DNA from: an uncultured Alphaproteobacteria bacterium
GTDB lineage: Bacteria; Pseudomonadota; Alphaproteobacteria; UBA11222
Reading direction: 5' to 3'
DNA length: 64,000 nt
Assembly (NCBI GenBank): GCA_947085295.1
Contig: CAMTVX010000005.1
Coordinates: forward strand, 2,149-66,148
The position numbers and the translations under genes were made by a program. Under the pieces are notes generated by a model. It worked only from the letters and a program-made list of their open reading frames with translations. It searched no databases and had not been told where the DNA came from. Position 1 is the first letter of the stretch. The number at the start of each line of letters is the position of its first letter. Shown here in pieces: positions 3,490 to 55,206 of this stretch.

Positions 3490-3972
3490 ATGGAAAATGA
3501 AAATTATCGCGACGAAGATATCGCCCGCATCCTGAAAGCCACCAGGACCATTGCGGTTGTCGGTGCCAGCCCGGAACGCAACCGGCCCAGCTATAGTGTG
3601 ATGCAGTTTCTGCAAAAACGTGGTTTTCGTATTGTGCCTGTAAATCCGCGCGCCAGCGGTGAAATGATTTTGGGCGAAAAAGTCTATGCAAGCCTCGCAG
3701 ACATCCCCTTTCCCATTGACATGGTGGATATTTTTCGCACGTCCGACGCCGCCGGGCAGGTCAGCGACGAGGCGATCGCGATAAAAGCAAAATGCGTCTG
3801 GATGCAATTGGGTGTGCGCAACCCCGCCGCCGCCGAACGCGCCCGCGCCGCCGGACTGCAAGTCGTCATGGATCGTTGCAGCAAAATTGAATATGGACGC
3901 CTGTCCGGACAGATCGGTTTTATGGGCGTGGACACCGGCATCATCAATAATTCACGCCGCCGCCGCGTATAA
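3490..3972 (+). CDS. CoA-binding domain protein (YccU-like)
   Basis: The motif ILKATRTIAVVGASPERNRPSYSVMQFLQKRGFRIVPVNP is typical of CoA-binding Rossmann-fold proteins. The start is uncertain (ATG at 3472 or 3490; the track ORF begins at 3382), and there is no strong SD. Confidence 0.6.
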   Translation: MENENYRDEDIARILKATRTIAVVGASPERNRPSYSVMQFLQKRGFRIVPVNPRASGEMILGEKVYASLADIPFPIDMVDIFRTSDAAGQVSDEAIAIKAKCVWMQLGVRNPAAAERARAAGLQVVMDRCSKIEYGRLSGQIGFMGVDTGIINNSRRRRV

Positions 3973-22937: not shown

Positions 22938-23032
22938 TCACCCCACCCCAACCCCTCCCCATAAAGGGGAGGGGCTTACCGCCGGGATATAATCTTCTCC
23001 CTCCCCCTCGTGGGGAGGGCCGGGGTGGGGGG
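22938..23032. repeat. G/C-rich nested palindromic repeat, family 2, copy A (intercistronic between the mccB and hydratase genes)
   Basis: CCCCACCCCAACCCCTCCCCATAAAGGGGAGGGGCTTACC...CTCCCTCCCCCTCGTGGGGAGGGCCGGGGTGGGGGG. A second copy lies at 55074-55206. Confidence 0.75.
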
Positions 23033-39975: not shown

Positions 39976-40007
39976 ATACCCTTCCTTTACCAGAGGGCAG
40001 GAAACAG

Positions 40008-40065
40008 GGGGCAGAAGACAGACACCTGAAGTTCATCTGCCCGCCGTCTTCTGCCCTCAGTTTTC
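40008..40065. repeat. Imperfect inverted repeat (GGGCAGAAGAC...GTCTTCTGCCC, 11-bp stem, roughly 26-nt loop) between ruvB and tolQ
   Basis: Seen directly in the sequence. The T-run follows only on the + strand, so it may be an attenuator or terminator between ruvB and the tol operon promoter. Confidence 0.4.
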
Positions 40066-40157
40066 TGCACTCTGTCTTCTGATATCCGTGCTTTGTCCCG
40101 CTGTAGTCCGAGAACGTGGCGCAAATGAGGCGATTCGTGAACCCTCATATAGTCTGA

Positions 40158-44640: not shown

Positions 44641-44865
44641 AATAACAGTGAAGCCGCCACCGCGGTTGGAGTGTACAAACCCCCGGGCGCCTGTTGCTAC
44701 AGGTGGGCGCCATATATCCCAGACCACGATCCGGGACAGGGACAGCTCCCTTCGGGTGGTTTAAGGCCCCTGGGTATGTGGTCTCCTGACCAACGGGGCA
44801 GCCTCATTAATGAGTATACCACAGATCGACCTTAAATGGCCGGTTTTTTCCTAAACCAGCCTGAT

Positions 44866-51121: not shown

Positions 51122-51148
51122 CTCCTCGTTAAACTATTCAGCGTTAAA

Positions 51149-52267
51149 TTATTCAGCCGATGCCTTCAACACCTGCAACACGATTTGCCTGTCCACGTCA
51201 CTGGTCATAAAGCATGCGCCGATATGCCGGGGCAGGATAAAATTTATCCGGCCACCGGCCACTTTTTTATCCTGCGCCATGTGCCCCAGCAACTTTTCCG
51301 TATTCAGCGCGCCTCCGGCAATATCTTTTATGCGGGTTGGCATGCCCATGTCTGACAGATGCCGTGCAACGCGCACCGCATCCTGCCCCGGTGCCAGACC
51401 GGTTTTTGCCGCCAGTTCAAATGCCAGGCACATGCCAATTGCCACACCTTCGCCATGCAGCAGCCTGTCGCTGTAACCCGTTTCCGCCTCCAGCGCATGC
51501 CCGAATGTATGTCCAAGATTTAACAATGCACGCGGTCCTGATTCGCGTTCATCCTGCACCACCAGCGCGGCCTTTGCGGCGCAACTGGTCATCACTGCGC
51601 GCGTGCGCGCCGTCTGATCCCCGTCGCGGATGCTGGCCCCTGCCGCTTCCAGCCAGTTGAAAAATTCGGCATCGCCGATCAGCCCATATTTAACAACTTC
51701 GGCATAGCCAGCCAGCAATTCGCGTTTGGGCAGTGTATCGAGCAGTGCCACATCGGCGATCACCATGCGCGGCTGATGGAACGCGCCAATCAGATTTTTG
51801 CCATAGCGATTATTGATGCCGGTTTTTCCGCCCACGGATGAATCCACCTGCGCCAGCAATGTTGTCGGAATTTGCGCAAAATCCACGCCCCGGCGCAACA
51901 CCGCCGCTGCAAAGCCTGTCAGATCACCAATGACCCCGCCACCAAATGCCAGCAGCAAATCGCCACGCTCAATTTTTTCCTGCAGCATCCAGTCAAGCAG
52001 CGCTTCCAGCTCATGGAAATTTTTGCTGTGTTCGCCTGCTGCAACAATGCGGTGGCAATGAGAAATTCCGGCACTATCGAGCCCCGCTAAAAGCGCTGGC
52101 AGGTGTTGCTGCGCGACATTGCTGTCGGTCACAATGCCCACCCGCTTACGCCGCAGCATAGGTCCAATAAGGACACCGATCTGTCCAAGCAGCCCAACAC
52201 CGACGTGAATGTCATAGGCACGCTCGCCCAGGGCGACATGCACCAATTGCGCGACAGGCGCGCTCAT
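51149..52267 (-). CDS. aroB: 3-dehydroquinate synthase
   Basis: 372 aa with NAD and metal-binding motifs of the DHQS family. Confidence 0.85.
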   Translation of the reverse strand: MSAPVAQLVHVALGERAYDIHVGVGLLGQIGVLIGPMLRRKRVGIVTDSNVAQQHLPALLAGLDSAGISHCHRIVAAGEHSKNFHELEALLDWMLQEKIERGDLLLAFGGGVIGDLTGFAAAVLRRGVDFAQIPTTLLAQVDSSVGGKTGINNRYGKNLIGAFHQPRMVIADVALLDTLPKRELLAGYAEVVKYGLIGDAEFFNWLEAAGASIRDGDQTARTRAVMTSCAAKAALVVQDERESGPRALLNLGHTFGHALEAETGYSDRLLHGEGVAIGMCLAFELAAKTGLAPGQDAVRVARHLSDMGMPTRIKDIAGGALNTEKLLGHMAQDKKVAGGRINFILPRHIGACFMTSDVDRQIVLQVLKASAE

Positions 52268-52881
52268 GGCGCTGCCTCATGCGGATGCCCGAAATAAACG
52301 CAAAGTTTTTCTACAATCATATCCACAACTTCTTCATGCGGCGCTTCCACGCTGTCCACGACGATATCGGCCAGCGCATACACCGGATAGCGTTCATCGC
52401 GCAGCCGCAACATTGTCTCACGCGCGTCGCCCTGTTTGAGCAGCGGACGGTTATTGCGCCGCGCCACGCGCTTTAGCAACAGTTCCACGTCTGCACGCAG
52501 CCATATAGAAACACCGTAATGCGCAATATTTTCCCGCGTCTGTGGATCCATATAGGCACCGCCGCCGGTCGCCAGAACACCGCCCGGCGGGGTTCCCTTG
52601 CTCATATCCTGTAACAAACGCTCAATCACCTTGTTTTCGCCCCTGCGAAATGCCGGCTCGCCATGTTTTTCGAATATTTCAGGAATCGTCATGCCCGAAG
52701 CCGTTTCGATTTCCGTGTCTGTGTCCAGAAAATTCACACCCAGGCGCGCCGCAAGCCGCCGTCCAACAGTGCTTTTTCCCGCCCCCATCAAGCCGATAAG
52801 GACAATAACCCTGTCTCCTGCCGGGTTATCTATCTGGGCCGTGACGGGGGGGGCTGCGCCCTCTTCTGATTCATCTTCCAT
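52264..52881 (-). CDS. aroK: Shikimate kinase
   Basis: P-loop motif GLMGAGKSTVGRRLA. It overlaps the aroB start. Confidence 0.85.
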   Translation of the reverse strand: MEDESEEGAAPPVTAQIDNPAGDRVIVLIGLMGAGKSTVGRRLAARLGVNFLDTDTEIETASGMTIPEIFEKHGEPAFRRGENKVIERLLQDMSKGTPPGGVLATGGGAYMDPQTRENIAHYGVSIWLRADVELLLKRVARRNNRPLLKQGDARETMLRLRDERYPVYALADIVVDSVEAPHEEVVDMIVEKLCVYFGHPHEAAP

Positions 52882-53020
52882 GTCGCCAGACTATCCGAAA
52901 ATAGCCTTATTTTCTAAGCCCGATTTTCTGCCCCTGTTTTAGCGCCATTGAAAGGCCGCAATGCACCGGATAATGTCCCAATAAAGGGAGTCTCTCCTGA
53001 ATAGGGATTCGCCAGCCCAT

Positions 53021-53096
53021 TAGACCGACAAATGTCCCTTAGACCTACAAATGCCCCTTAGACCTACAAATGCCCCTTAGACCTACAAATGAAAGG
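53021..53096. repeat. Tandem direct repeat array, 19-bp unit TAGACCTACAAATGCCCCT x about 4
   Basis: The units are 53021-53039 (TAGACCGACAAATGTCCCT), 53040-53058, 53059-77 (the middle two identical) and 53078-53096 (degenerate at its 3' end). Confidence 0.85.
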
Positions 53097-53110
53097 CACA
53101 GTGCCGAACG

Positions 53111-53251
53111 ATGTCAAAGCTGCTTGGTTCCATACTGGTTTTGCTCGTCGCCATATTTATCGGCGGAGCGATTTATATTTCAATCTGGGACGTGCCACCA
53201 CCGGTGCGCACTGTCGAGAAAGTCTTGCCGGATGAAATGCTGGGCAAGTAA
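53111..53251 (+). CDS. Candidate small membrane protein (46 aa), not in the ORF track
   Basis: ATG 53111 to TAA 53249-53251 encodes MSKLLGSILVLLVAIFIGGAIYISIWDVPPPVRTVEKVLPDEMLGK, one clean TM helix. It starts 14 bp after the tandem repeat array and overlaps the start of the next gene by 20 nt. Confidence 0.3.
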   Translation: MSKLLGSILVLLVAIFIGGAIYISIWDVPPPVRTVEKVLPDEMLGK

Positions 53252-55016
53252 CCGCAGTCGGCATATCGCATTTTTCTCCGGTTTTCTTGGTGTTGCGGTT
53301 GTTGCTCTTGCGCATGGCATCGCACAGGCACAGGCCCCGATACCGCTTCGTCCACCATCTGAACTGGCGCCTGCCACACCTCTGCCCCCTGTCACTGAGG
53401 AATATCCCGCCGAAACTGAAAATGACGGCATCAGCACGGGTGCGCTTGGGCAACTGGATTTTGCTTCTGTCGGGATACTGACGGCTGACAGTGGCGGCTT
53501 TGGGCCACAGACATGGCAAGGTGCGGATCGCGCCCTGGTGGAGCGTCTGCTGCCAAAATTACCGGTTACGACACACTCCCCCACCCTGCAAAAGCTGATG
53601 CGGCGACTATTGCTCAGCACCGCCGAACCGCCACAGGGAACCAGTACCGGCGCATCCTTCATTGGTTTGCGTCTTGAGCGGCTGATAAAGGCCGGACACT
53701 TTGAACAGGCTGCACAGATGTCCGCACTGGCGGGTGGCCCCACCAGGGACGAAGCCCTGTTACAGGCACGTGCCGAAATTGCGCTGGCATCTAACGAATT
53801 CAAACAGGCCTGTGATATGGCCGCAGCACAGGTTCGCGCCAGCGAGGCTGTCTTCTGGCTGAAACTCACCGGGTTTTGCCAGATCATCAATGGCGATGAG
53901 GCCGCAACGCAATTGACCGCATCCCTGGTCGCCGAACAGGAACCGGACGATACCGGATATCAACGTCTGCTGGCTGCGCTGATCAGCAAATCCGGCAGGC
54001 TGCCAGAAAATCTGCCGCATCTGGACATCCTGCAATTAGCGATGATCCGATTTGCATCACTACCACTGCCAGAAAAAATTGACGATCATGCTGCACCCGC
54101 TGTTTTGAAATTGATGGCGCGCATGCCCGGCGCATCGGTGCAACAACGCCTGCCCGCCGCCGAACGCGCCGAGGCCGCAGGCGCAATAGGCCCGCAAGAG
54201 GTGGCCCAGCTTTACTCTGAAATGCCCTTCACCGTGGAAGATCGCGCCGGGGCCGCTGAACTGGCGACAACACTGCCCCCCGCCCAGGCCAACGCCTTGC
54301 TGTTCCAGTCCGTGCGCGGACAGGATTCCACCGCCGGCCTGACACTTGCGCTATCCGCTGCATGGCGGCTTGCCCGCGCCAGCAACAGTTTTGCAACCGT
54401 TTCCCGTGTCAATCTGACCCCCATACGCGATCTGGTTCCCGCGCCGGAAATGATCGAAATTGCCGCTGAAGCCGGTCGCGCATTGCTGCTGGCGGGCGAT
54501 CCTTTGGCCGCGACTCGCTGGTATGATCTGGCCCGCGCATTAAGCATTCCCGGCAACAATCCCGCCGCAACGCGCGCCAAAAATGACCTGTGGCCGTTGT
54601 TGCGGCTGGCGCAACCTGTTGCGGGCATACCAGAGGATCCTCTCGAAATCACCGCCTGGCTGGCGCAATTATCGCCAGAGGATAAAACCCGCAAGGGGCC
54701 TATCCTGCTCTCCGCCATGTCGGCGCTGGATATGGCCACACCGGAGTCCGAATGGGTCGCCATGGCGCAGGATACCAAAAAAACCGATGCGGCTGCGATG
54801 CCGCCAGCGGCGTTGCTGCATCTGCTGATGGAAGCCAGCCAGAGCGGGCGCGTCGGGCAAACCGTTTTGTTAAGCCTTGCCTGTCTGGGCGAAAATGGCG
54901 CGGGCCTGACGGACCCGTTATTGCTGGGAATTACCGTGCGCGCGCTCAACACCGTTGGTTTGCAGACAGAAGCCCGCGCACTAGCGCTGGAGGCGGCGTT
55001 GCAGGCTGGGATTTAG
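53232..55016 (+). CDS. Secreted Ala/Leu-rich helical protein of unknown function (signal peptide; about 594 aa)
   Basis: An internal ATG at 53232 gives the signal peptide MKCWASNRSRHIAFFSGFLGVAVVALAHGIAQAQA; the track's 54 upstream codons are probably not translated. The rest is predicted largely alpha-helical and repeat-like. It lies between aroK and xerD. Confidence 0.5.
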   Translation: MKCWASNRSRHIAFFSGFLGVAVVALAHGIAQAQAPIPLRPPSELAPATPLPPVTEEYPAETENDGISTGALGQLDFASVGILTADSGGFGPQTWQGADRALVERLLPKLPVTTHSPTLQKLMRRLLLSTAEPPQGTSTGASFIGLRLERLIKAGHFEQAAQMSALAGGPTRDEALLQARAEIALASNEFKQACDMAAAQVRASEAVFWLKLTGFCQIINGDEAATQLTASLVAEQEPDDTGYQRLLAALISKSGRLPENLPHLDILQLAMIRFASLPLPEKIDDHAAPAVLKLMARMPGASVQQRLPAAERAEAAGAIGPQEVAQLYSEMPFTVEDRAGAAELATTLPPAQANALLFQSVRGQDSTAGLTLALSAAWRLARASNSFATVSRVNLTPIRDLVPAPEMIEIAAEAGRALLLAGDPLAATRWYDLARALSIPGNNPAATRAKNDLWPLLRLAQPVAGIPEDPLEITAWLAQLSPEDKTRKGPILLSAMSALDMATPESEWVAMAQDTKKTDAAAMPPAALLHLLMEASQSGRVGQTVLLSLACLGENGAGLTDPLLLGITVRALNTVGLQTEARALALEAALQAGI

Positions 55017-55073: not shown

Positions 55074-55206
55074 CTCCACCCCACCCCAACCCCTCCCCAT
55101 CAGAGGGGAGGGGCTTTACCACCGCGTTCTGATCTTCTTCTCCCTCCCCCTCTCGCCAAGCGAAGCTTTGGCGTAGCTTTGTGCGGGGAGGGCCGGGGTG
55201 GGGGGA
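55074..55206. repeat. G/C-rich nested palindromic repeat, family 2, copy B (with a 32-bp insert)
   Basis: CTCCACCCCACCCCAACCCCTCCCCATCAGAGGGGAGGGGCTTTACC...CTCCCTCCCCCTC[TCGCCAAGCGAAGCTTTGGCGTAGCTTTGTGC]GGGGAGGGCCGGGGTGGGGGG. It ends 10 bp before the xerD start. Confidence 0.75.

Follow-up and report, generated by a model that had tools for sequence, protein, structure and literature searches.

The window, i.e., the whole 64-kb stretch of DNA that was analysed, carries a tandem array of four 19-bp units between the divergent gene aroK and a 46-codon ORF, which is the location claimed for it in the earlier note. The neighbouring genes encode a CNNM/CorC transporter, AroB, AroK, two hypothetical proteins and XerD, with the CNNM/CorC gene lying beyond aroB and xerD following the 594-aa gene. 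The features of the locus are as follows.

51149-52267, minus strand: aroB (Pfam DHQ_synthase), beyond aroK
52264-52881, minus strand: aroK, shikimate kinase (Pfam SKI)
52890-52916, minus strand: putative aroK promoter, TAGAAA, 15-nt spacer, GATAGT (relaxed scan, 8/12 matches; block conserved in alignment A3)
52948-52974, plus strand: putative promoter of the small-ORF operon, TTGAAA (52948-52953), 15-nt spacer, GATAAT (52969-52974)
53005-53013, plus strand: conserved box GGATTCGCC, with GATTCG (53006-53011) invariant (A3 columns G137-G142), directly 5' of the linker
53016-53091, plus strand: tandem array of four 19-bp units (TRF, repeat search, pattern searches, alignment A3)
53016-53034, plus strand: unit U1, CCCATTAGACCGACAAATG
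53035-53053, plus strand: unit U2, TCCCTTAGACCTACAAATG
53054-53072 and 53073-53091, plus strand: units U3 and U4, identical, both CCCCTTAGACCTACAAATG
53091-53097, plus strand: conserved box GAAAGGC (A3 columns G222-C228 invariant), adjoining unit U4, 14 nt before the ATG
53111-53251, plus strand: small membrane-protein ORF, 46 aa, MSKLLGSILVLLVAIFIGGAIYISIWDVPPPVRTVEKVLPDEMLGK (ORF list, conservation)
53232-55016, plus strand: 594-aa ORF with a signal-peptide-like N-terminal segment (identical NCBI protein record P0114)

The 46-codon ORF has been kept adjoining aroK in at least 10 related lineages (L001-L010 and metagenome loci), and synonymous codon differences exceeded non-synonymous ones in all seven pairwise comparisons (e.g., 18 vs 4 and 22 vs 7). 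Because of this conservation and the synonymous excess, it is judged to be a genuine gene. It overlaps the 594-aa ORF by 20 nt, as it also does in orthologues (L101), and the two ORFs are therefore probably co-transcribed and translationally coupled. Neither the small protein nor the 594-aa protein had a Pfam, NCBIfam or PDB sequence match, and the homologues of the latter are all named 'hypothetical'. The gene pair itself (53111-55016) is conserved as a single-pass membrane protein of 46 aa, in which the motif WDVP.P..VE is invariant, and a secreted protein of ~560-600 aa; throughout this alphaproteobacterial clade (L001-L010, L081-L130) the pair sits between aroK and xerD. The best AroK matches were from metagenome-assembled genomes, at no more than 93-94% identity, and an identical AroK protein is on record as P0113.

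The presence of a 6S/SsrS RNA gene (44647-44807, minus strand; 76.5 bits vs a gathering score of 46.4) and the even GC content of ~0.56 indicate that the window is ordinary chromosome; tRNA and tmRNA genes were searched for and none was found. Several other repeats were observed in the window. A dispersed intergenic element, CACCCCACCCCAACCCCTCCCCAT..AGGGGAGGGGCTT, occurs at 22939-23009 and 55077-55152, with 95% identity over 40 bp plus a 17-bp block. It contains the hairpin CCCCTCCCC/GGGGAGGGG and looks like a REP-type palindromic element, and one of its copies lies between the 594-aa gene and xerD. At 39991-40081, the adjacent arrays CAGAGGGCAGAAAA (2.3 copies) and then TCTGCCCTCAGTCT (3.3 copies) have mutually reverse complementary units and form a long imperfect inverted repeat, GGGGGCAGAAGAC ... 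GTCTTCTGCCC, possibly acting as a bidirectional terminator or folding into a large stem-loop. A 15-bp tandem duplication of 2.1 copies (CGTTAAACTATTCAG) is located at 51127-51157, in the spacer between the start of the CNNM/CorC gene and the stop of aroB.

When TRF was run on the whole window, the array was reported at 53015-53091 with a period of 19, 4.1 copies, 93% matches and a score of 133, the highest among the 44 TRF rows of the 64-kb window. The repeat search on the window returned four copies with successive spacings of 19, 19 and 19 bp. In the pattern searches of the window, the 19-mer with up to three mismatches occurred three times vs 0.01 expected by chance, and the 14-bp core TAGACCKACAAATG occurred four times in the 64 kb vs 0.33 expected, all inside the array; no further copies of the array core were found elsewhere in the 64-kb window. 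The four tandem direct repeats of 19 bp are thus real.

The region 53015-53096 reads GCCCAT TAGACCGACAAATG TCCCT TAGACCTACAAATG CCCCT TAGACCTACAAATG CCCCT TAGACCTACAAATG AAAGG. The register adopted in this study is CCCNT+TAGACCNACAAATG, which gives four full units and a total of 76 bp (53016-53091). The units are diverged by three substitutions, and a perfect repeat tract of 52 bp (53040-53091) is included in the array. The array is enclosed by the flank pair GGATTCGCC...GAAAGGCACAGTGCC, and its GC content of ~56% equals that of the flanks (0.56). The copy number of four was read from one assembled contig, in which the 76-bp array has distinguishable units. In some details the earlier description has to be amended. 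Where one copy was said to have three substitutions, copy 1 (TAGACCGACAAATGTCCCT) has two relative to the consensus, and the alleged degeneration of the fourth unit at its 3' end is an effect of the register, the AAAGG concerned being part of the GAAAGGC box next to the array, a box found unchanged in every relative. Similarly, a distance of 14 bp between array and ATG is correct from the end assumed there (53096), but in the adopted register the 3' end (53091) lies 19 nt before the ATG at 53111. A 648-aa ORF starting within unit 3 (53070) was considered as a coding repeat and rejected, since it is a read-through of the 594-aa frame, whose annotated product starts at 53232.

The standard promoter scan called no promoter in 52500-53600, and the TTGAAA/GATAAT pair was missed owing to its 15-nt spacer. 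In a relaxed hexamer scan (spacer of 15-19 nt, at least 8/12 matches), TTGAAA-N15-GATAAT was the best sigma-70-like pair of the intergenic region, with 10/12 matches; TAATGT after a 17-nt spacer is an alternative reading. TTGAAA and GATAAT do not vary among the 12 aligned lineages, whereas the sequence of the spacer does (A3 columns T79-G85 and G100-T107). Invariant hexamers combined with a variable spacer sequence are a classic promoter signature. This pattern points to TTGAAA-N15-GATAAT as the promoter of the small-ORF operon, with a predicted transcription start near 52981, and the array, located 41 bp downstream of the conserved -10 candidate, would most likely be in the transcribed 5' leader. 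Within or across the units, no promoter-like hexamer pair with at least 8/12 matches was detected by the standard and relaxed scans. One pair found by eye across adjacent units, TAGACC-N19-TACAAA, was rejected because its spacer is overlong and its -10 element lacks the T at position 6.

On the other strand, the candidate aroK promoter ends 8 nt before the ATG, which suggests that the aroK mRNA may be almost leaderless. The expression 'divergent promoter region', used earlier for the location of the array, needs qualifying, since conservation puts both candidate promoters upstream of the array. The block upstream of aroK (52890-52930) also contains a 14-bp direct repeat (AGCCTTATTTTCTA followed by AGCCCGATTTTCTG) and, by eye, the inverted repeat GAAAATA-GCCT-TATTTTC, of which the arms GAAAA...TTTTC recur in relatives.

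The GAAAGG of the box 3' of the array may be a Shine-Dalgarno sequence with long spacing because it is complementary to CCUUUC, a sequence that many bacteria have at the 3' terminus of their 16S rRNA. Two other candidates in the leader were tried and rejected. An upstream ORF at ATGAAAGG has an ATG that is not conserved (GAGG, GCG, TAG or ACG in L003, L006, L007 and L087), and the palindrome GGCACAGTGCC, located between the GAAAGG box and the ATG, is not kept as a palindrome in relatives. The segment from the -10 candidate to GGATTCG (52977-53013) is itself an old 16-bp tandem duplication, which appears as CCCTGCAAAGAGATTC followed by CCCTGAACAGGGATTC in L001, L052 and L084 and was seen by TRF in relatives (L001, 3875-3906; L084, 1425-1456); the leader therefore has a history of tandem duplication.

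At the RNA level, the array (76 nt) had a minimum free energy of -1.6 kcal/mol (z = +0.56), and each 19-nt unit contains only two G. The array RNA is thus predicted to be essentially unstructured, G-poor and C/A-rich. Folding of the leader as a whole is poorer than that of shuffled sequences (z = +1.74), and no Rfam family was found in it at the gathering score or at E-values up to 10. Covariation-supported structure was likewise not found; RNAalifold with 11 leaders gave just four pairs, an invariant helix, at -2.1 kcal/mol and no compensatory changes. A hairpin before GGAUUCG and a GUCC:GGAU pairing, both suggested by single-sequence folds, were rejected because they were inconsistent between lineages and lacked covariation. 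GUCC and GGAU are invariant in the leader and could pair, with no covariation support. The stretch from GAAAGG to the ATG was predicted to be unpaired at 0.36-0.40, and this value was unchanged for one, two, three or four units.

Orthologous aroK/small-ORF intergenic regions of related uncultured alphaproteobacteria, comprising ~20 distinct haplotypes, were obtained from genome bins, from metagenome contigs found by a search with the small-ORF alignment (A1), and from contigs with close variants of AroK or of the downstream protein. The 19-bp array was absent from all of these ~20 regions, and 15 haplotypes were single-copy (L107, L001, L084, L085, L087, L101, L102, L104, L108, L002, L003, L006, L007, L081 and L116). 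Against eight single-copy relatives in alignment A3, the window is longer by 57 bp, an excess made up of three further 19-bp units that lie between GATTCG and GAAAGGC. All single-copy lineages measure 116-119 nt from the -35-like element to ATG+12, and the window measures 177 nt. The invariant blocks of A3 are the aroK start with its upstream block, CATTGAAAG ... GATAnTGT, GATTCG, GAAAGGC and the ATG (53111), and the variable segments between them are of near-constant length. The GATTCG-GAAAGGC linker (22 nt) is the least conserved stretch of A3, whereas the boxes flanking it are invariant.

Examples of the single-copy state are GCCCATTAGCGCGACGAATG followed by AAAGGCACAGTGCC in L107, GCCCATCAGACTGACAAATG followed by AAAGG in L001, and GCCCATTAAACCGACCTACG followed by AAAGG in L087. 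U1 retains the ancestral CCCAT and GAC of the relatives, while U2-U4 share the derived CCCCT or TCCCT together with TAC. The comparison of copy number (four vs one) is one between species-level lineages (AroK identity of at most 94%), and exact-protein look-ups with the small ORF of the window, AroK (including the identical P0113) and AroB matched no other indexed contig.

Other insertions were found in the same linker. L052 and many near-identical contigs have a 13-bp duplication (CATCAGACTCACA followed by CACCAGACTCACA), and L005 has a 13-bp duplication of unrelated sequence (TAAATACTGTTCC followed by TAATTACTGTTCC). In L008 and L090 the linker is ~190 nt long, corresponding to an insertion of ~170 nt, and the promoter-like element, GGATTCG and AAAGG are retained; the long linker of L008, which is a more distant lineage, lies at about 3640-3840 in minus-strand orientation. 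The L052-type allele (2x13 bp) was identical in ~29 contigs from many sequencing runs, and no allele with three or more copies was present among the ~29 contigs of this sister lineage. The close relatives L084, L085, L101, L102 and L104 are single-copy. L116 encodes a downstream 563-aa protein identical to that of the L052 type but is single-copy as well. From these alleles, the linker site is taken to be duplication-prone and polymorphic, stable once an allele exists, and not hypervariable.

Small tandem duplications are common, this genome and its relatives having 36 arrays with periods of 10 bp or more in 157 kb. Nevertheless, insertions at one 22-nt linker in four lineages are more than a uniform distribution would predict, and by a rough base-rate estimate two insertions reached TRF detection vs ~0.15 expected over 12 lineages. 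This excess is suggestive of a tolerant or favoured site and is not significant once the tolerance of the linker is allowed for; it could also reflect selection rather than mere tolerance.

Based on these results, the array can be classed with the known bacterial intergenic minisatellites or VNTRs, as a lineage-specific case. The explanation preferred here, which we consider probable, is that of a minisatellite generated by slippage in an insertion-tolerant linker of the leader, with a neutral or mildly modulatory role. An ancestral 19-bp segment, approximately CCCAT-TAGAYYGACNAATG and present once in each relative, would have been tandemly duplicated, and one daughter copy would then have acquired substitutions (G to T and A to C). 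The derived copy would have been amplified again and one more substitution added, giving four units in total and a gain of 57 bp. Growth by such steps is implied, since U1 keeps the ancestral bases while U2-U4 share the derived ones. Replication slippage or unequal sister-strand exchange would be the most likely mechanism. The insertion lies in the variable linker, past the conserved promoter-like element, and ends 19 nt short of the small-ORF start codon. The array probably has no influence on expression or a modest one; any such influence would come from leader length or from a single-stranded standby region for the ribosome immediately before its binding site. Given the otherwise tight leader length (116-119 nt), the insertion of 57 nt might not be neutral.

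The last point leads to the possibility that the tandem duplications 5' of the ribosome-binding site were selected, a longer CA-rich standby or enhancer tract or an altered leader stability tuning the translation of the operon. In favour of this, four lineages have insertions of independent origin in the linker, and the three tandem duplications among these (in the window, L052 and L005) abut the GAAAGG box within 0-4 nt. The array is unstructured, with two G per 19 nt, and the ribosome-binding region is predicted to be just 36-40% unpaired, a situation in which standby sites help. There are also precedents: unstructured CA-repeat 5' tails strongly raise translation (PMC5934652), and the AGAT repeats in the 5' UTR of uspA2 in Moraxella catarrhalis set its expression level (PMC4679880). 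However, the published standby effect (PMC5934652) saturates at 16-18 nt, so that 57 extra nt would add little. Moreover, most lineages have a short linker of fixed length, and the predicted accessibility of the ribosome-binding site is the same whatever the copy number. Selected tuning of this kind is therefore considered rather unlikely. A more far-reaching version, in which the 22-nt linker is a recurrent target of tandem duplication (4x19, 2x13 and 2x13 bp, plus ~170 nt) and leader length is selected as a translational 'volume control', seems distinctly unlikely. If it were true, the translation of the small membrane protein and its coupled secreted partner would be tuned by the length of the CA-rich leader tract.

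The earlier note offered as one possibility a hypervariable VNTR that could phase-vary the downstream genes. Such a contingency locus, at which frequent gain and loss of units would switch the downstream operon within a population, appears quite improbable. The perfect tract of 52 bp (53040-53091) would be a substrate for slippage, and the promoter repeats of 54-58 bp in Mycobacterium tuberculosis vary at 1e-2 to 1e-3 per chromosome (PMC12817950). The proposal holds in so far as the copy number differs between lineages (four vs one) and the sister lineage has alleles with one and two copies of the 13-bp duplication, with an identical downstream protein. The word 'hypervariable' does not hold, because the 2x13 allele was the same in ~29 contigs from many runs and no allele of three or more copies occurred there. 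The three substitutions between the units of the array also indicate a turnover too slow to homogenise them. As for phase-varying expression, the claim lacks support: the array neither contains nor splits a promoter, lying outside the annotated ORFs and not between the -35 and -10 hexamers, and an on/off mechanism is not apparent; its period, 19, is not divisible by 3. Furthermore, the host is a free-living, freshwater-type alphaproteobacterium represented by metagenome bins only, and the operon is syntenic with housekeeping genes.

It is very improbable that the units are bound as an array by a multimeric regulator or that they act as replication-origin iterons. Four direct repeats of 19 bp, a typical iteron length, in a divergent intergenic region would be compatible with such a role. 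However, orthologous regions in which every other regulatory block is retained have one copy of the segment, and its sequence is poorly conserved there. The operator reading was rejected because this is the least conserved segment of the region, because it does not recur in the 64 kb, and because the head-to-tail period of 19 bp is off the helical phase and would put successive sites on different faces of the helix (a rotation of ~0.8 turn). The iteron reading fails for the reasons that no Rep (replication-initiator) gene is nearby, that the neighbours are chromosomal housekeeping genes, and that the GC content (~56%) is the same as in the surroundings. Searches of plasmid and viral-contig collections also returned no array-like sequence, and a mobile-element or plasmid origin of the array was rejected on the same ground. 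Finally, a copy number raised or created during assembly is extremely unlikely, since, even though the source is evidently a metagenome-assembled contig and tandem repeats can mis-assemble, the 76-bp array is shorter than ordinary reads and k = 141 and its units are told apart by substitutions, which assemblers do not invent.

Under the preferred reading of a slippage-generated minisatellite, the array matters little beyond its locus. It would be a clean natural example of the stepwise growth of a minisatellite in a bacterial leader, and it marks the portion of a conserved regulatory region where insertions are tolerated. Should the copy number vary within the population, the array could serve as a strain marker for this uncultured alphaproteobacterium of freshwater type. 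It could likewise help in understanding the expression of the uncharacterised two-gene operon beside aroK.

Several known systems can be compared with the array. Plasmid iterons are Rep-binding direct repeats of 17-22 bp; the array shares with them the 19-bp unit and the direct orientation but is without a Rep gene, origin context or conservation. In M. tuberculosis, tandem repeats with units of 54-58 bp are located in the promoters upstream of lpdA, cysG and dop (PMC12817950). These units contain the promoter, so that copy number amounts to promoter dosage, and they vary within populations (PMC12817950), whereas the 19-bp units studied here are without promoter hexamers, lie downstream of the candidate promoter and are known from one contig. 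On the other hand, both kinds of repeat have units of tens of bp arranged head-to-tail, at a distance of a few to tens of bp upstream of a start codon, differ in copy number between related genomes and presumably arose by slippage or unequal exchange. Single-stranded ribosome standby sites and CA-rich translational enhancers (PMC5934652) offer a further parallel, since the C/A-rich array is predicted to be unstructured and immediately precedes a ribosome-binding site with some predicted structure; a standby role is hypothetical here. Lastly, the uspA2 repeats and the TAACTGA arrays of Beggiatoaceae (PMC4679880) have units of 4-7 nt in 6-23 or more copies and an expression effect that has been shown or argued, in contrast to the 4 x 19 nt of the array. 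Like them, however, the array appears to occupy a leader position shortly before the ribosome-binding site, and it is G-poor and predicted to be similarly unstructured.
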